Origin: Myxococcales bacterium
GTDB taxonomy: Bacteria; Myxococcota_A; UBA9042; JABWCM01; BTVJ01
DNA length: 20,930 nucleotides
NCBI GenBank assembly: GCA_045863395.1
Contig: BTVJ01000114.1
Location: 1 to 20,930 of the forward strand
Direction of reading: 5' to 3'
The translations under genes were made by a program, and so were the position numbers. Positions within the stretch are counted from its first letter, which is position 1, and the number at the start of each line of letters is the position of its first letter. Under the pieces are notes generated by a model that saw nothing but the letters and a program-made list of their open reading frames with translations, made no database searches and had not been told where the DNA came from. Positions 1,625 to 17,349 of this stretch are shown here, in pieces.

Positions 1625-6694
<5,070 letters not shown>

Positions 6695-6739
6695 GCACGG
6701 CTCCCTTTTTTTGGTGGTGGACTCCCGGACCTGCGGTAG

Positions 6740-6755
6740 AGCATCCACCGTGCCA
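6740..6755 (-). promoter_or_regulatory. sigma54 (-24/-12) promoter for the giant secreted protein gene
   Basis: Minus strand TGGCACGGTGGATGCT vs consensus TGGCACG-N4-TTGCW: one mismatch, exact GG-N10-GC spacing. Predicted start near 6729, ~35 nt before ATG 6694. Confidence 0.75.
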
Positions 6756-6770
6756 TGCGGCACTTCCGCG

Positions 6771-6783
6771 CAACTCCTTGACC
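6771..6783 (-). promoter_or_regulatory. Possible IHF site
   Basis: Minus strand GGTCAAGGAGTTG matches the TCAA-N4-TTR core of WATCAANNNNTTR (first two bases mismatch). It sits between the -24 box and the putative enhancer, where IHF sites usually lie in sigma54 promoters. Confidence 0.35.
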
Positions 6784-6874
6784 ACAATGATCTCGCACCG
6801 GCTCCGACGGATATGCCCGGTGGGTGTCGTGTGACCCGGGGGTGGGTGGGTGACTCAGGGGGGCGCAGCATCGC

Positions 6875-6922
6875 GGGCGGGCACTGCAGGAGCTGCAGGT
6901 CCCGCCCCTGCAAGATCTGCAT
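6875..6922. promoter_or_regulatory. Candidate upstream activator sequences (bEBP sites): tandem TGCA-N5-TGCA palindromes
   Basis: CTGCAGGAGCTGCAG (6884-6898) and CTGCAAGATCTGCAT (6908-6922), 24 bp apart. The first lies inside a 33-bp inverted repeat (6875-6907, 13/15 arm match). They are ~85-110 bp from the rightward and ~160-190 bp from the leftward predicted start. Confidence 0.5.
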
Positions 6923-6973
6923 GAGCGTCACTTGCTGTTCGCAGAACATTCAGAATTTACTATGCTTTTGTCC

Positions 6974-6989
6974 TGGCACGCCCGGTGCA
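6974..6989 (+). promoter_or_regulatory. sigma54 (-24/-12) promoter for the PqqD/ATP-grasp operon
   Basis: TGGCACGCCCGGTGCA vs TGGCACG-N4-TTGCW: one mismatch, correct spacing. Preceded by an AT-rich patch (6945-6970). Predicted start near 7000, just before RBS AGGAGG at 7012-7017. Confidence 0.75.
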
Positions 6990-7024
6990 AACCACATCGA
7001 CAGGACCTTCCAGGAGGTGAACCC

Positions 7025-7273
7025 GTGCTCGAACACCTGGCCATCAGCGAGAGTGGCTTCCTCTTCGACGCCCGCACCGGGCACACGTACACCCTGAGCC
7101 GCACCGGGGTCTTCCTCGTGCGCGCCCTCGTCTCCGGCGCCTCCACTTCAGAGCTGCCCGGCCGCCTCGCCGCGGACTACGACGTGGAGCCGCCCATCGC
7201 GGCCCGCGACGTGGAGCAGTTCCTGATGCGCATGCGCGACCTCGGCCTGCTGGACACGGAGGACGAGCCATGA
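7025..7273 (+). CDS. PqqD-family / RiPP recognition element (RRE) stand-alone protein, 82 aa
   Basis: GTG start 7 nt after AGGAGG. Sequence GFLFDARTGHTYTLSRTGVFLVRAL...LAADYDVEPPIAARDVEQFLMRMRDLGLL shows the three-strand/three-helix PqqD pattern (YxLxxxG, Y-D-V, D-V-xx-F-L-xx-L-xxx-G-L-L). Confidence 0.88.
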   Translation: MLEHLAISESGFLFDARTGHTYTLSRTGVFLVRALVSGASTSELPGRLAADYDVEPPIAARDVEQFLMRMRDLGLLDTEDEP

Positions 7274-8328
7274 GCCTGACCATCGCCGTCACCGGCCTGA
7301 ACGCCAGCGACAGCCCCGGCCCCGGGGTGCCCGTGATCCGCGCCATCCGCCATGCGGCCAACGGCGAGGTCCGTGTCGTGGGCCTCGCCTACGACCCGCT
7401 CGACCCCGGCGCCTTCATGTCGGGCATCTGCGACGACGTCTACCTGATGCCGTACCCCTCGCAGGGCGCCGACACCCTCCTCGCCCGGCTGCGCGCCATC
7501 CACGAGATCACGCCGCTGGACGTTCTGATCCCCACGCTGGACGCCGAGCTGTCCGCCTGCATCAAGATCGAGCCCGCCCTCCGCCAGCTCGGCATCCGCA
7601 TGGTGCTGCCCGGCGAGGAGCGCCTGCGCCTGCGCGCCAAGGATCGCTTCGGCGAGCTGGGCGAGGCCATCGGGCTCAGCGTCCCGAAGAGCGTGACCCT
7701 GACGGACGCCTCCACCATCCCCAGCCTCGACAAGGACTTCACCTACCCGGTCATGGTGAAGGGGCAGTTCTACGACGCGTGGATCGCGTGGACTCCCATG
7801 GACGTCCACGCCCACTTCGAGCGCGTGCGGGCCAAGTGGGGGCTGCCGGTCATCGTGCAGCAGCACGTCTCCGGCGAGGAGCTGGACGTGGTGTGCCTGG
7901 GCGACGGCGAGGGCGGCCTCGTCGGGTGGGTGCCCATGCGCAAGATGCAGCTCACGGACAAGGGCAAGGCCTGGGGCGGCGTGACCATCGCCGACCGCAA
8001 GCTGACGGCCTTCGTCCAGGACACGATGCGGCGGCTCAAGTGGCTCGGGCCCTGCGAGCTGGAGATGATGAAGACTCCAGATGGGGCCTTCACCCTCATC
8101 GAGATCAACCCCAGGTTCCCGGCGTGGGTGTGGCTCAGCGTCGGCGCGGGCCGCAACCTGCCGTGGGCGCTCGTCCAGATGGCGCTCGGCCACCCGGTGG
8201 ACCCCATGCCGCCCGCCCCCCCGGGCGTCATGTTCCTGCGCCACTCCTTCGACCAGATCTGCACCCTGTCGGACTACGCCGCGCTCACAACCGCCGGCGA
8301 GCTCCACCGCGAGGAGGCACCCCGATGA
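7270..8328 (+). CDS. ATP-grasp ligase (carbamoyl-phosphate-synthase/biotin-carboxylase-like fold), 352 aa
   Basis: ATGA overlap with the upstream stop. Motifs DVLIPTLDAEL, YPVMVKG, PVIVQQHVSGEE, WLGPCELEMM and LIEINPRF (ExNPR metal/phosphate motif). Confidence 0.88.
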   Translation: MSLTIAVTGLNASDSPGPGVPVIRAIRHAANGEVRVVGLAYDPLDPGAFMSGICDDVYLMPYPSQGADTLLARLRAIHEITPLDVLIPTLDAELSACIKIEPALRQLGIRMVLPGEERLRLRAKDRFGELGEAIGLSVPKSVTLTDASTIPSLDKDFTYPVMVKGQFYDAWIAWTPMDVHAHFERVRAKWGLPVIVQQHVSGEELDVVCLGDGEGGLVGWVPMRKMQLTDKGKAWGGVTIADRKLTAFVQDTMRRLKWLGPCELEMMKTPDGAFTLIEINPRFPAWVWLSVGAGRNLPWALVQMALGHPVDPMPPAPPGVMFLRHSFDQICTLSDYAALTTAGELHREEAPR

Positions 8329-9668
8329 AGCAGCCCTACGAGAAGCCGACCATCCTGCGCCATGTGGGCGGGCTCGCAAACAAGCACGGCCGCGGCCCGA
8401 GCCGCCGCTCCATGGGGCGCATCGACGGGGTGCGCGTCGAGGAGCTGGTCGCCCGCTACGGGAGCCCACTGTACGTGTTCAGCGAGCACACGCTGCGCCG
8501 CGCCTACCGCGAGCTTCACCGCGCGTTCTCGCTGCGCTACCCCAAGGTGCAGCTCGCGTGGTCGTACAAGACCAACTATCTGGACGCCATCTGCCGCGTG
8601 TTCCACCAGGAGGGCGCCTGGGCCGAGGTCGTCAGCGAGATGGAGTACGACATGGCCCGCCGCCTGGGCGTGCCGGGGCACCAGATCCTGTTCAACGGCC
8701 CGTACAAGCCGCAGGCGGCGCTGAAGACCGCCATCGACGAGGGCGCGCACCTGCACATCGACCACTGGGACGAGCTGTGGGCCATCGAGCGCATCGCGCG
8801 CGAGTCCGGCCGCCCCGTCCCGGTGACCATGCGCGTCAACATGGACACGGGCATCTACCCGCGGTGGGACCGCTTCGGGTTCAACCTGGACAGCGGCGAG
8901 GCCCTGGACGCCATCCGGCGGATGCACGCCGGGGGGCACCTCACCCTCGACGGCCTGCACGCGCACATCGGCACCTACATCGCGTCCACGGAGGCCTATG
9001 GCAAGGCTGCGAGCCGCCTGGCGGACCTCGCCCTGACCGCGCGCCGGGAGCTGGGCGTCCGGGTCCGCAGCATCGACCTCGGCGGAGGGTTCGCGTCGAC
9101 GGCCACCCTGCACGCCCAGTATGCGCCGGGCGCCGACTCGTCCCCTGCCGTCGACCTCTACGCCGAGGCCATCTCCAACGCGCTCCTCGGGGCCGGCTTC
9201 GCCCCGGAGGACCTGCCGACCCTGATGCTGGAGACCGGCCGCGCGCTCATCGACGAGGCCGGCTCCCTGATCACGTCCGTGGTCGGCAACAAGCGCCTGG
9301 CCAACGGGACGCGGTCCATCATCGTGGATGCGGGGGTCAATGTGCTGTTCACGTCCTTCTGGTATCGCCACGAGCTGCTCCCCGCCCATGACCGGGGAGG
9401 GCTCCTCGAGGAGACCGTCGTCTACGGGCCCCTGTGCATGAACATCGACGTGGTGCACCCCTCGACCCTGCTGCCCCCCCTCGACCCCGGCGATCTGCTC
9501 GTCGTGCGGCCCGTCGGGGCGTACAACATCACCCAGAGCATGCAGTTCATCAGGCTGCGGCCGGCGGTGGTGATGGTGGGCGAGGGCCAGCAGGTGGATC
9601 TGCTCCGCGACGTGGAGACCGTCAACGATGTCAAGCGCAACGAGCATGTCCCTGAGCGCCTCCGCTGA
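8325..9668 (+). CDS. Fold-type III PLP-dependent decarboxylase (Orn/DAP/Arg decarboxylase family, LysA-like), 447 aa
   Basis: True start is ATG 8325 (GAGGAGG RBS, ATGA overlap). Motifs SYKTN (PLP Lys), FNGPYK, MRVN, RFG, GLHAHIGT, IDLGGGF, ETGR, VDAG, GPLC, GAY. Confidence 0.9.
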   Translation: MKQPYEKPTILRHVGGLANKHGRGPSRRSMGRIDGVRVEELVARYGSPLYVFSEHTLRRAYRELHRAFSLRYPKVQLAWSYKTNYLDAICRVFHQEGAWAEVVSEMEYDMARRLGVPGHQILFNGPYKPQAALKTAIDEGAHLHIDHWDELWAIERIARESGRPVPVTMRVNMDTGIYPRWDRFGFNLDSGEALDAIRRMHAGGHLTLDGLHAHIGTYIASTEAYGKAASRLADLALTARRELGVRVRSIDLGGGFASTATLHAQYAPGADSSPAVDLYAEAISNALLGAGFAPEDLPTLMLETGRALIDEAGSLITSVVGNKRLANGTRSIIVDAGVNVLFTSFWYRHELLPAHDRGGLLEETVVYGPLCMNIDVVHPSTLLPPLDPGDLLVVRPVGAYNITQSMQFIRLRPAVVMVGEGQQVDLLRDVETVNDVKRNEHVPERLR

Positions 9669-11751
9669 CGCCCGCGGGTGGGTCGCAGCCGGCCTGCGCC
9701 AGGTGCTGGAGGCCTACGCGCAGGTGCTCTTCGGGCGCAGCCTGCTCGCGGGGCTCCTCTTCGCGGCGGCAACCTTCGTGGTCCCGGAGCACGGCCTGGC
9801 GGGGCTCCTCGGGCTGCTGGCGACCAACGGGTGGGCGCGGGCGCTGGGTCGCCCAGACGCCCACATCCGAGAAGGGTACTACGGCTACAACGGGCTCCTC
9901 GTGGGCCTCGCGCTCGGCAACCTGTTCCGTCTGACGCTGCCCTTCGCGGTGCTCCTCGTCGCCGTGAGCCTGCTGACCGTGGCGGTCGCCGCGGCGCTGC
10001 GCAACGTGAGCGAGCGCCTGATCGGCGTGCCCGTCCTGTCGCTGCCCTTCGTGCTCGCCACGTGGGCGGCGCTCCTCGCCGCCCGGCGCTTCGGCGCCGT
10101 TGAGATCGCCATCGACCCGGTGCTGGCCGGTGTCCCGCTGGGCGTCGCGGCACCCATCGTCGAGACCTTCCTGCGGTCGCTCGGGGCGGTGTTCTTTCAG
10201 CTCGGTGTGCCGTCCGGCGTCCTGGTCCTGGCGGGGCTCCTCGTCCAGTCCAGGTGGGCGGTCATCCTCGCGATCCTGGGCTTCGCGGCGGGCGCGGCAG
10301 TCTACCAGGGCCTGGGCGGCGCGGACGCGGACATCTCGGCCTCCCTCATCGGCTTCAACTTCATCCTCGCGGCCATCGCGCTCGGCGGCGTGTTCGTGGT
10401 GCTGGGGCCGGCCTCCCTCGGCCTGGGCGCGGCCGCCGGGGTGCTCGCCGCCGTCCTGTCCGCGGCGACCATGGCGGCGCTGGCCCCCCTGAACCTGCCG
10501 GTGCTCGCGTTCCCCTTCGTCATCACGACCCAGGCGCTGATCTTCGCGCTTGCGCTGCGGGTCAATGGCGGACGGCCCCGCCTCGTGGAAGGTCCCCCCG
10601 CGACCCCCGAGGTGAACCTCGCGCGGGCCGTGTTCCGGGCGCGGCGCTACCCGGACCCGTCCGTGCCCGTGCTCCACCTGCCGGTGGTGGGGCGGTGGAA
10701 GGTCACGCAGGGCGTCGCCGGCGCCTTGACCCACCAGGGGCTGTGGGCCCACGCCTGGGACTTCGAGGTGGCCGGCGAGGACGGCTCCACCCACCGGGGG
10801 GACGGGGCGCGCCGCGAGGACTGGCTCGCCTGGGGGATGCCGGTATTCGCGCCGGCCGACGGGCGGGTGGTGCGGGTGGTCAACCACCAGGAGGACAACC
10901 CGGTGGGGGAGGTGGATGTCGCGAGCAACTGGGGCAACCTCGTGATCCTGTGGCACTGGGGGGACGTCTACTCCGCCGTCTGCCACCTGCAGAAGGGGTC
11001 GGTGGCCATCCGGGAGGGGGAGGTCGTGGCGCGCGGGCAGCTCCTGGGGCGCGTGGGCAGCTCGGGGCGGTCGCCGGTCCCCCACCTGCACTTCCAGGTT
11101 CAAGGGTCGCCGGAGGTCGGAGCCCCCACCCGCCGGGCGGAGCTGCTGCACTACGTCGAGGACGGGCGCTGGGTGGCCCACGGCGTGCCACGCGAGGGCG
11201 ATCTGGTGGCTCCGCTGGCCGTCGATGAGGTGGCACGGCGGGCCGTGTCCCTGGCCCCCGGGGTGGAGCTGGTGTGGGACGTGCGGTGGGGCAGCCAGGT
11301 ACGCCAGGAGCGGTGGCAGAGCACCATCGACGCGCTCGGCGGGCGGGAGCTGTCCACCGATGGGGCGCGGGCGCGCCTGTGGGTGGATCAGAGCTACACG
11401 ACGGTGCTGGACTACGAGGGCAGCGGTGACACCCTCCTCGCGGTCTTTGCCCTCGGGGCGGCGCGGGTCCCCCATTCCCTCGCGGGGCGGTGGACCGATA
11501 CGCCTCCGGTGGCGCCGTGGCTCTCCGCGCCGATGCGCCTCGCGCAGGAGCTGCTCCTGCCCTTCGCGGAGGTGGGGGCCGCGCGGACGACCAGCACCCT
11601 TACGGCGGGTGATGGGCTGCGGGTCGTGACCGAGGTGGCAGGTGGCGCGGGGGCGCCGACGCGCGTAGAGATCCGCTGGGTGGACGGCCCCGAGGAGCTG
11701 CGGGCCTGGAAAGGCGACACCCTCCTGGTGGAGGCGAGGAGGCGGCGATGA
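9646..11751 (+). CDS. Urea transporter (UT) domain fused to M23 metallopeptidase and a C-terminal domain of unknown function (~701 aa)
   Basis: UT signatures YAQVLF, GYYGYNGLLVG, PVLSLPF and, in the second repeat, SLGAVFFQ, GFNFIL, PVLAFPF within ~10 hydrophobic helices. M23 motifs VTQG..TH....HAWDF, PVFAPADGRV, WGNLVILWH, CHLQKGS, GxVGSSGRSPVPHLHFQ. Start could alternatively be ATG 9628; the gene overlaps the upstream stop. Confidence 0.88.
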   Translation: MSLSASADARGWVAAGLRQVLEAYAQVLFGRSLLAGLLFAAATFVVPEHGLAGLLGLLATNGWARALGRPDAHIREGYYGYNGLLVGLALGNLFRLTLPFAVLLVAVSLLTVAVAAALRNVSERLIGVPVLSLPFVLATWAALLAARRFGAVEIAIDPVLAGVPLGVAAPIVETFLRSLGAVFFQLGVPSGVLVLAGLLVQSRWAVILAILGFAAGAAVYQGLGGADADISASLIGFNFILAAIALGGVFVVLGPASLGLGAAAGVLAAVLSAATMAALAPLNLPVLAFPFVITTQALIFALALRVNGGRPRLVEGPPATPEVNLARAVFRARRYPDPSVPVLHLPVVGRWKVTQGVAGALTHQGLWAHAWDFEVAGEDGSTHRGDGARREDWLAWGMPVFAPADGRVVRVVNHQEDNPVGEVDVASNWGNLVILWHWGDVYSAVCHLQKGSVAIREGEVVARGQLLGRVGSSGRSPVPHLHFQVQGSPEVGAPTRRAELLHYVEDGRWVAHGVPREGDLVAPLAVDEVARRAVSLAPGVELVWDVRWGSQVRQERWQSTIDALGGRELSTDGARARLWVDQSYTTVLDYEGSGDTLLAVFALGAARVPHSLAGRWTDTPPVAPWLSAPMRLAQELLLPFAEVGAARTTSTLTAGDGLRVVTEVAGGAGAPTRVEIRWVDGPEELRAWKGDTLLVEARRRR

Positions 11752-12986
11752 TCACCCCATGGATCCTGGCGCTGGGCTTCGATGCGCAGATGGCCGCCGG
11801 TCAGGAGCGCCTTGCGGCCGGCGCGTGCGTGGAGGCCGCGACCGCGTACCAGGCGGCGGGCGCCGAGGTCCCGGACGCGGAGGACGCCTGGGTCGGCGCG
11901 CAGCGCGCCTGGCTGTGCGCGGGAGAGTGGGCGAAGGCCGCGAACGCAGGGAACGTCGCCCTGGCCCTGAACCCGCACAACGCCTGGGCGCTGCGGGGGC
12001 TGGGCTACGCGCTGTCCATGACGGGCGACCTCGACGGCGCGCGACGTGCCTACGAGGCGTGCCTGGCCTTGCGGCCCGACGATGGGGAGGCGCGGCTGGG
12101 CCTGGGCTTCGTGCGCGTCGCGCAAGGGGACGTGGACGAGGGCCACGCGCTCTGTCGCGGCGCCGCGAGCGGGCTCACCGTGGGGGATCCCCGCCCCGAC
12201 GAGTGCCTCGCCTTGGGTGGAACCCCGTTCACGTGGGGTGCCGGCGTTTCCGCCACGTACCTCCGCTACACGGACCCGTACATCCTACGCAACGTCTCGG
12301 CCATCTCGCTCACGGCGGGCGTGGACTGGGTTCCCGGTGGCGTCTGGGCCGGAGCCACGCTGAGCGGTTCGGCCCGCAACTTCGACCTTGGCGACTACCA
12401 ACAGGCAAACCCGGTGCTTGGGGGGGCCGTGCGCATCGGCGGCCTCACGATGGGGGTCGCAGGCAGCGTGCTCTTCTCCAGCGAGGACTCCCTGGACCTG
12501 ACGGGTCTGGTCCTCGGGTCCCTCGCCTACCGGGACGGTGCCTTCGGGGCGAGCGTGTCATCGACGACCAGCCTCTACCCGAGCCAGGTCGTGGAGCAGC
12601 TCGACGCCCGCTTCGAGTGGGAGCCGGCGCCTTGGCTGTCCCTGGTCCTCGGGCCGGAGCTGCAGATCATCGACGCCGACGAGCTCCTCGCCAGCGGCTC
12701 CCTGTCCGTGACGGGGCGCCCCCACCCGCGGTTGGCGCTGTTCGCCACGGGACTCGGGGGGCCGCGACGCTGGGCCGTCGATGACGTGCTCTTGAGCGTC
12801 TGGACCAACTCCGACCGGGTCATCGGGGGCTACCGCGTGGGGGTGGACTGGACCCCGTGGGACGTCTTCGGGCTCACCTTGACGTTCCGCCACGACTTTG
12901 GCGATGAGCAGGCGGGGCTCACCCGCGACTTTCAGATCTGGGGCGGCACCCTCGGGGCGCGGCTCTTCTTCCAGGAGGCACCATGA
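11748..12986 (+). CDS. TPR-repeat protein with probable C-terminal outer-membrane beta-barrel, 412 aa
   Basis: AGGAGG RBS and ATGA overlap. TPR pattern ALALNPHNAWALRGLGYAL...GDLDGARRAYEACLALRPDDGEARLGLG. The last ~250 aa are alternating amphipathic strands ending GGTLGARLFF. Confidence 0.75.
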   Translation: MITPWILALGFDAQMAAGQERLAAGACVEAATAYQAAGAEVPDAEDAWVGAQRAWLCAGEWAKAANAGNVALALNPHNAWALRGLGYALSMTGDLDGARRAYEACLALRPDDGEARLGLGFVRVAQGDVDEGHALCRGAASGLTVGDPRPDECLALGGTPFTWGAGVSATYLRYTDPYILRNVSAISLTAGVDWVPGGVWAGATLSGSARNFDLGDYQQANPVLGGAVRIGGLTMGVAGSVLFSSEDSLDLTGLVLGSLAYRDGAFGASVSSTTSLYPSQVVEQLDARFEWEPAPWLSLVLGPELQIIDADELLASGSLSVTGRPHPRLALFATGLGGPRRWAVDDVLLSVWTNSDRVIGGYRVGVDWTPWDVFGLTLTFRHDFGDEQAGLTRDFQIWGGTLGARLFFQEAP

Positions 12987-13597
12987 AGACGCTTGCAGTG
13001 TTGCTGCTGACCCTCACCCTCGTGCGCCCGGCCGCGGCGGACGGACCGGCGGACATCCCCGACCTGTTCGCGTCGTCCTTCGCCTACGAGACGACGGGCG
13101 ACCTGGACCGCGCGCTCAACGACGCGCTGCGCGTGGTCCGCGTCGAGCCATCCCACTACGTCGCGACCCTGCGCGCGGGTTGGCTCTACTACTTGAAGGG
13201 GCGGTATGGGGACTCGGTGGACCTCTACCAGAAGGCCGTGAAGCTGGCGCCGAACGCTGCGGAGCCCAAGCTGGGGCTCATGCTCCCCCTGATGGCTGCG
13301 GGGCGTTGGGGTGAGGCGGAGGCCGTGGGGGAGCAGGTGCTGGCCAAGGCGCCCCGAAACTACCTGGCGGCGAGCCGGCTCGCCTACTGTGCGTTCTCCC
13401 AGGGGCGGTGGAAGGTCGCCGAGCAGCGCTACAAGGAGGTGCTCGACGACTACCCGGGGGACCTGGAGATGATGCTGGGGCTCGCCTGGACGTGGGCCAA
13501 GCAGGGCAGGGCCGCGGAGGCCAAGGGGCTGTTCCAGAAGGTGCTGGTCATCCGCAAGGACAACGTCAACGCCCGCGCCGGGCTCGACTCGTTGTAG
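12983..13597 (+). CDS. Secreted/periplasmic TPR-repeat protein, 204 aa
   Basis: AGGAGG RBS and ATGA overlap. Signal peptide MKTLAVLLLTLTLVRPAAA. Tandem TPRs: LRAGWLYYLKGRYGDSVDLYQKAVKLAP; RLAYCAFSQGRWKVAEQRYKEVLDDYP; GLAWTWAKQGRAAEAKGLFQKVL. Confidence 0.88.
   Translation: MKTLAVLLLTLTLVRPAAADGPADIPDLFASSFAYETTGDLDRALNDALRVVRVEPSHYVATLRAGWLYYLKGRYGDSVDLYQKAVKLAPNAAEPKLGLMLPLMAAGRWGEAEAVGEQVLAKAPRNYLAASRLAYCAFSQGRWKVAEQRYKEVLDDYPGDLEMMLGLAWTWAKQGRAAEAKGLFQKVLVIRKDNVNARAGLDSL

Positions 13598-15675: not shown

Positions 15676-17349
<1,674 letters not shown>

Follow-up and report, generated by a model that had tools for sequence, protein, structure and literature searches.

The window analysed here is the whole 20,930-nucleotide stretch of contig BTVJ01000114.1 (GCA_045863395.1) from a Myxococcales bacterium. 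Six tightly coupled genes on its + strand encode a PqqD-type recognition element for peptides made on the ribosome and modified after translation (RRE), an ATP-grasp ligase, a pyridoxal phosphate (PLP)-dependent decarboxylase, a urea-transporter-like domain fused to an M23 metallopeptidase (UT-M23), a tetratricopeptide repeat (TPR)/barrel protein and a TPR protein. The decarboxylase begins with a tail that carries a leader-like YxxPxI motif, and this motif is very probably bound by the RRE in the manner of lasso-peptide B1 proteins on their leaders. The tail is real and conserved and probably serves as an RRE ligand, a form of RRE recognition that would be new; there is a fair chance that a new carrier logic is involved as well. 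Five lines of evidence point to the tail as the predicted RRE ligand, as a first-pass annotation had suggested: co-occurrence, joint loss, a lasso-type pocket, Asp62/Tyr5 covariation and the lack of a conserved free precursor.

Conservation of the decarboxylase tail and its predicted RRE partner

The decarboxylase gene (8325..9668, +) encodes 447 aa, and its start is backed by a ribosome-binding site, GGAGG, and by the ATGA in which it overlaps the stop codon of the ATP-grasp gene. The N-terminus reads MKQPYEKPTILRHVGGLANKHG. The LysA-like core begins near I33-D34-G35 and the NCBIfam lysA alignment starts from residue 32, so that the extension (8325..8420, residues 1–32) measures approximately 32 aa; the first-pass annotation was right about its presence and slightly long in its estimate (~35 aa). 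An AlphaFold2 monomer model gave predicted local distance difference test (pLDDT) values of 54/47/66 across residues 1–30 and 97 from residue 31, and because of these low values the tail is probably disordered and free of the core.

Homologous loci were picked by similarity through profile searches of sampled genomes (301, 401, 301, 251, 251 and 5), which gave 255 subfamily loci with one duplicate, five non-family, four partner-gene and 20 outgroup loci omitted. Full-length members of the subfamily scored at least 497 bits versus at most 237 bits for ordinary LysA-like genes, a gap far beyond the contribution of the tail. The putative RRE anchor, Y5-E6-K7-P8-T9-I10 (8337..8354, +), was kept in 252 of the 253 loci whose N-terminus falls inside the locus, and its pattern was retained in 114/120 homologous proteins; the chance of a loose [YWF]xxPx[LIV] in a given 10-residue window is approximately 0.7% for proteins of the same genome. 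Across 220 unique RRE–tail pairs, position 5 was Tyr, Phe or Trp (Y161/F34/W25), position 6 mostly Glu (189), position 8 invariably Pro (220) and position 10 aliphatic with one exception (I174/L33/V12/F1). A second element overlooked by the first-pass annotation, N19-K20-H21-G22 (8379..8390, +; N19-K20-[FHY]21-G22 in general), was conserved in the same pairs (N166/S33, K213, F177 and G199). Its Lys20, a candidate acceptor or carrier lysine, is the second most conserved tail residue after Pro8 (0.26 bits), and the spacing from Tyr to Lys was 15 in 210/217 sequences. Positions 9, 11, 14, 15 and 23–26 were variable (entropy ~3 bits). The tail consists of two conserved islands, a YxxPxI anchor and an NKxG element, within the family consensus [YFW]ExPx[ILV]…G…[NS]K[FHY]G. 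The conserved glycine between them is G16 (Tyr+11, 194/220), two positions later than in the lasso consensus, which corrects its earlier placement one position later; G15 is variable.

The RRE was found in 206/208 and the ligase in 207/208 of the loci with at least 1.7 kb of upstream sequence, and the RRE was 76–105 aa long in 148 of 150 called loci. At 20 outgroup LysA-like loci, chosen as the next-best matches, both the tail profile and the RRE profile gave 0/20, and the loose pattern occurred in one. This comparison of homologues supports the suspected link between motif and PqqD gene, the motif being conserved in syntenic loci. One operon, L242, is split, and its RRE is retained on another contig. 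Another locus, L220, encodes a decarboxylase without the tail that groups within the tailed clade (support 91 and 100); searches of its genome for the RRE, ligase and UT-M23 yielded weak and partial matches, none of them full-length. This decarboxylase keeps the catalytic residues and has changes at the pocket residues W346, Y347, M372 and Q404, which are near-invariant elsewhere. One derived, joint loss of tail, RRE, ligase and channel is read here as support, not proof, for their linkage, and the L220 enzyme may be repurposed or decaying. The gene itself (L220:7128-8543, −) lies downstream of genes that by eye encode a MoxR-like ATPase and a WD40-like protein, in an AT-richer-looking block.

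The RRE gene (7025..7273, +) has a GTG start and encodes a discrete 82-aa protein of the lasso B1 type (PF05402, E 5.7e-12; NF033530 and TIGR04353 also matched), whose closest solved relatives are TbiB1, TfuB1, PbaB1 and LppB. Discrete RREs bind [Y/W]xxPx[L/V/I/F/A]; in LppB, D70 hydrogen-bonds the leader Tyr and the kink at the Pro is held by N33, and in PbaB1, which binds Trp, the Asp is replaced by Gln (PMC13381572). In our alignment, N33/Y60/D70/F74/L83 of LppB correspond to S25/Y52/D62/F66/L75 of the RRE, with Asp62 encoded at 7208..7210 (+). These pocket positions were well kept across the 220 pairs, with Asn or Ser at 25 in 219 (N207/S12), Tyr or Phe at 52 in 216 (Y141/F75), Phe66 in 197 and Leu, Ile or Val at 75 in 193.

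Residue 62 followed the tail aromatic. Asp was present with 154 of 161 Tyr tails (others N5, E1 and one gap), with 0/34 Phe tails (Y29, S3, N1, H1) and with 13/25 Trp tails. The pattern was first seen in 183 pairs and held in 37 fetched afterwards, of which 29/29 Tyr tails and 0/3 Phe tails came with Asp. Asp62–Tyr5 ranked first of 1406 RRE–tail column pairs, weighted or unweighted, and Asp62 was the top partner of Tyr5 among 822 columns drawn from the RRE, the ligase and the decarboxylase core (z 8.4, next 4.5). We weigh this covariation as real but modest because the test was directional and the position was taken from solved structures. Two other covarying pairs, Thr21–His13 and Asp15–His13, were set aside as largely phylogenetic, the former also failing the independent-pairs test.

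The first-pass annotation had seen no precursor-peptide ORF near the RRE gene, which agrees with the wider searches. Among short motif-bearing open reading frames (ORFs) of at least 20 codons in 183 loci (2.29 Mb), none was conserved; the scan gave 334 candidates, of which the largest cluster covered 6 loci and was antisense to the ligase gene. The tail profile had one match in the window's own genome and one convincing match per cassette in ten other genomes, including G311 with its two cassettes. Searched against 1.84 billion representatives it gave 169 matches; among the 150 listed, 147 were decarboxylase N-termini (mostly fragments and chimeras) and 3 were unrelated repeats. Some candidates were rejected, namely a few tail-profile matches of 30–60 aa that end soon after NKFG with unrelated C-termini and look like truncations, and two short ORFs of the own genome with a ribosome-binding site and YxxPx[LIV], which resemble neither the tail nor each other. 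No meaningful match to the tail profile occurred among solved structures, no fused RRE form scored in a search of longer proteins (weak evidence), and plasmids gave only ordinary LysA-level matches. An apparent ligase–decarboxylase read-through (P0018) has a frameshifted junction and was not used. The own genome also encodes a second stand-alone PF05402 protein (L217:1375-1674, G000:C71) beside a cysteine-rich, secreted-type gene; no YxxPx[LIV] short ORF was among those listed nearby, which makes it another orphan RRE.

Several observations weigh against docking of the tail on the RRE. Position 25 of the window RRE is Ser (12/220) and not the Asn needed by LppB, and Asp62 persists with thirteen Trp tails. 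On the tree, no more than 6 aromatic and 4 Asp changes are required, and independent pairs changed in the same direction in approximately 2/5 and never in the opposite one, with a median p of 0.5 (not significant). Only two of 18 paper-derived contact pairs were in the top ten, most other literature contacts being too invariant or too noisy for ranking. The joint loss concerns one gene, which may be decaying, of one draft genome.

Enzymes of the cassette and the candidate carrier Lys20

The decarboxylase is a PLP-dependent fold-III enzyme of a distinct subfamily nearest to FslC/FigC, with 314 bits against FslC (7kh2) versus 230 against LysA and a Foldseek E of 7e-41. It missed the cut-offs of both the LysA family TIGR01048 (221.8 vs 297.9 bits) and the FslC family NF041039 (225 vs 500 bits). 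K82, H214, G253–255, E303 and R306 are invariant in 218/218 sequences and C371 is present in 217/218. FslC is grouped with SbnH, MccE and BtrK, enzymes whose amino acid substrates are acylated, peptide-bound or carrier-bound (PMC7857480). A second LysA-like gene of the own genome, on C20, lacks the tail.

The ligase (7270..8328, +; 352 aa), translationally coupled to the RRE and decarboxylase genes, is confidently assigned an ATP-grasp fold, the nearest structure being uncharacterised. The fold search singled out neither PylC nor any characterised enzyme, and no graspetide ligase was among the matches listed. A weak PylC-like N-domain match was found in 44/97 ligases and the RimK Pfam matched weakly in 4/97; K164, G165 and A170 are invariant in the 97. 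At 7744-7790, VKGQFYDA stands in the ligase in place of the longer, glycine-rich loop of many ATP-grasp enzymes (a gap versus CarB). The same fold (TM 0.95) occurs in an ESM Atlas cluster of a double-length protein (721 aa, 344 members), mostly of Pseudomonadota.

We tentatively favour, at somewhat below an even chance, a cycle in which the tail is itself the modified substrate and Lys20 makes it a reusable carrier arm, the enzyme serving as its own "precursor." Tyr5 would lie against Asp62/Tyr52 of the RRE, Pro8 against Phe66/Ser25, and Ile10 in a Tyr22-Leu24-Phe66-Leu75 pocket, so that Lys20, 15 residues on from Tyr5, could reach the coupled ATP-grasp ligase. This ligase would acylate the epsilon-amine of Lys20 with an amino acid through its side-chain or distal carboxylate, and the tethered residue, retaining its free alpha-amino acid end, would be decarboxylated at the FslC-like active site. 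The channel-fused M23 domain may then hydrolyse the isopeptide bond, and the UT-like pore may release a small amine product toward the TPR/barrel envelope proteins. Every binding and chemical step, together with the substrate, the product and the membrane topology, is proposed from the sequences.

The first-pass annotation had offered, as an alternative, that the decarboxylase N-terminus is the modified substrate, and the data tilt toward this view through the near-invariant Lys20 and a Lys-to-Thr clade without the channel-peptidase. Three Lys20-to-Thr loci keep the RRE, the ligase and WxxPxI, and their genomes gave no UT-M23 match; a Lys-bearing sister genome has UT-M23, and where UT-M23 is missing locally from two Lys-bearing loci, it is encoded elsewhere in the genome. 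Lys20 lies outside the tail segment that touches the RRE in solved complexes. The lasso register places YxxPxL at −17 to −12, Thr/Ile at −2 and Gly at +1 (PMC10368454). On a −17 register, Lys20 is at −2 and Gly22 at +1. The metal-binding and catalytic residues of the M23 domain (H369, D378, H453, H486 and H488) are invariant in 147/147 sequences, which suggests that some pathway compound is an amide to be cut.

A number of points speak against the carrier cycle. The −2/+1 match is confined to the −17 register, and the aromatic residue lies at −16 in LppA and −15 in PbaA (PMC13381572). The Lys-to-Thr loci form one clade, L112 has Pro for Lys20 with UT-M23 still present, and genome G092 (99% complete) keeps Lys20 and gave no UT-M23 match. 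The ligase fold yields no substrate hint. The spacing from Lys20 to the core is 26 in 200/217 sequences, about as fixed as the Tyr-to-Lys spacing, so that packing on the enzyme dimer or substrate binding could be the role of Lys20 instead. Atlas models of relatives align from residue 10–12, which hints at some order in the tail. An argument that the RRE anchor, and not the core, sets the position of Lys20 was rejected, since both spacings are nearly fixed and the models are not separated.

The main rival to this carrier cycle, which we consider plausible and on balance unlikely, is that the RRE grips YxxPxI only to dock the decarboxylase on the ligase, with NKxG as a second, unmodified docking patch. 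The ligase would then couple one free metabolite to another, such as an acid to the amine in the side chain of Lys, Orn or diaminopimelate as in PylC or rhizoferrin synthetase, and the product would be channelled to the decarboxylase. All the evidence for RRE–tail binding fits this scheme, as do the PylC-like matches among the ligases and the replacement of Lys20 in 4/220 pairs. The nearest solved decarboxylase, FslC, acts on free N-acyl-ornithine (PMC7857480), and the C-terminal half of the leader of linear polyphosphorylated peptides (LPP) has been proposed to contact modifying enzymes (PMC13381572). It leaves unexplained, however, a near-invariant Lys in place of a hydrophobic anchor, an intact amide hydrolase on a channel, and the change of Lys20 in the hydrolase-less clade. 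The first-pass annotation had assigned the RRE this adaptor role; docking itself is favoured by the sequence comparisons, with the adaptor purpose as one possible reading of it.

It is improbable that the motif resembles a leader by coincidence, serving the structure or regulation of the decarboxylase dimer, with the RRE binding the ligase or an unlinked peptide. RRE–tail binding is argued from sequence, co-inheritance within an operon yields co-occurrence for free, ORFs below 20 codons lay outside the short-ORF scan, and the structure model is a monomer. However, Asp62 tracks Tyr5 better than 821 other co-inherited columns do, the decarboxylase core included, the Tyr/Phe/Trp pattern agrees with published RRE pockets (PMC13381572), and the searches found no conserved short motif-bearing ORF in the 183 loci and a single tail-profile match in the own genome.

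The carrier cycle has one further competitor, distinctly improbable, in which the RRE hands the tail to M23 as B1 hands a leader to B2, a cut near His21/Gly22 activating or releasing the enzyme or tethering it at the membrane channel. The −2/+1 positions of Lys20/Gly22 on the −17 register, the intact M23 catalytic set and the loss of Lys20 in the clade without UT-M23 would agree with such a hand-over, but three genomes that gave no UT-M23 match still have the RRE, WxxPxI and the ligase, the Tyr of the peptide-pairing strand in three lasso B1 proteins, presumably the peptidase-contacting Tyr33, is Ser/Thr here, and M23 enzymes normally cut peptidoglycan-type bonds.

Gene layout and distribution

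Downstream of the decarboxylase, the UT-M23 gene (9628..11751, +; PF03253 and PF01551) has an uncertain start codon and was found in 158/165 loci with at least 1.2 kb of downstream sequence. It is followed, with ATGA coupling, by a gene (11748..12986, +) for a protein with a signal-peptide-like start, TPR repeats and a probable outer-membrane barrel, and then by one for a secreted-type TPR protein (12983..13597, +). The latter, identified by TPR matches as was its neighbour, is a usual cassette member, with a BLAST match in 109/176 sequences (window included; many loci truncated). No sigma-70 promoter match was found within 6600-8500 of the window.

The closest homologues carry Myxococcota or Deltaproteobacteria labels, and the cassette spans at least 8 phyla. 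Named phyla of cassette loci are Bacteroidota, Ignavibacteriota, Myxococcota, Gemmatimonadota, Aquificota, Thermodesulfobacteriota, Pseudomonadota, Melainabacteria and Chlorobiota, a phylum label being absent for 112/180 locus rows. The layout varied among loci. In L112, L222 and L227, the barrel/TPR genes lie upstream of the RRE, not downstream of UT-M23. One gammaproteobacterial genome (G311) holds two complete cassettes (L046 and L219), both with WxxPxI tails. In the split operon L242, a 146-aa ORF (2000-2440, −), by eye a FabA/FabZ hot-dog dehydratase-like protein, lies on the opposite strand between ligase and decarboxylase. Both split-cassette halves in L242 and L282 (G804) follow a gene with a C-terminal secretion-type domain, and the RRE half continues into genes for a small exported protein and a barrel-like protein. 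In the window itself, 1625-6949 (−) and 15676-17349 (−) each encode a large cysteine-rich protein of the secreted type in which MopE-like DDDCDG repeats are numerous, the former transcribed away from the cassette and containing an EPGS tandem repeat and TSP3 repeats.

Comparison with known systems

In genome mining, an RRE is read as a sign of a small precursor gene, and clusters without one are set aside. Here, the apparent "precursor" would be residues 1–22 of an enzyme whose gene is annotated as diaminopimelate decarboxylase or alanine racemase. If true, this explains one class of orphan RREs and suggests scanning the N-termini of enzymes beside others, and three small soluble proteins, obtainable from cultured soil bacteria, would suffice to test a widespread cassette. 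A new biosynthetic logic is possible, though somewhat less likely than not: an RRE-addressed lysine carrier arm inside an enzyme would receive its load from an ATP-grasp ligase, present it to the PLP site of the same enzyme and lose it to a channel-fused M23 isopeptidase, so that the recognition machinery of modified peptides would serve the catalytic assembly of a small molecule with no peptide product. If Lys20 is the carrier, the carrier chemistry would be new, and cytoplasmic M23 domains and UT-family channels would gain a role. In the literature covered, mainly the main texts of open-access papers, we found no description of PqqD/RRE with ATP-grasp, decarboxylase and urea transporter/M23, nor of a PqqD-type RRE acting on the N-terminal extension of a protein substrate.

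On the features tested, the cassette falls outside the lasso, graspetide, LysA and FslC systems. It shares with lasso systems a stand-alone B1-related PqqD-fold protein, an N-terminal motif on a co-encoded polypeptide (Phe also allowed) and the pocket residues. The lasso RREs TbiB1 (5v1u/5v1v), TfuB1/FusB1 (6jx3) and PbaB1 (9x90) have the same motif class and pocket residues (PMC13381572), but their motif is on a short precursor and not on a 447-aa enzyme. The cassette has no conserved free motif-bearing short ORF and has Lys, not Thr, at position −2; neither the B2 peptidase family nor that of the asparagine-synthetase-like lasso cyclase was among the 13 main proteins of the window, the part scanned for them. 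The LPP proteins LppA/LppB are likewise a non-lasso use of a discrete YxxP-binding RRE, and the LPP leader consensus YxxPxVLxHQ resembles the Myxococcota-type tail YEKPTI[LI]xH; LPP systems, however, have free precursors and a kinase, whereas the cassette has an ATP-grasp ligase and a decarboxylase, with the enzyme as the putative "precursor" (PMC13381572).

In graspetides, a RimK-like ligase cross-links paired Lys/Ser/Thr and Asp/Glu residues of a free precursor. For the cassette no conserved free precursor was found, the RimK Pfam matched the ligases weakly at best, and no conserved acidic residue, the graspetide partner, lies downstream of Lys20. In butirosin biosynthesis, BtrK is a sequence and fold relative of the decarboxylase and BtrJ is an ATP-grasp ligase. 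This pathway is similar to the cassette in combining a fold-III decarboxylase with a ligase, there acting on carrier-tethered glutamate on BtrI (PMC7857480). BtrI is a separate phosphopantetheine carrier used without an RRE, whereas the arm of the cassette would be inside the enzyme and addressed by the RRE; none of the window's cassette genes matched an acyl carrier protein family. The N-citrylornithine decarboxylase FslC/FigC (7kh2) of rhizoferrin synthesis shares the catalytic Lys, His, Glu, Arg and Cys and the glycine loop with our enzyme; it is paired with a synthetase for siderophores made independently of nonribosomal peptide synthetases (NIS synthetase), whereas the cassette decarboxylase is accompanied by an ATP-grasp ligase, an RRE and UT-M23 (PMC7857480). 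No NIS synthetase family was present among the window proteins.

Two further systems bring a modified peptide and an enzyme together. In borosins, the substrate peptide is likewise carried by its own modifying enzyme, but, unlike the tail, its core is C-terminal and modified by the same protein with no discrete RRE. In QhpD/QhpC, a leader guides modification of an enzyme subunit, and the leader of the small QhpC is removed after radical-SAM cross-linking.

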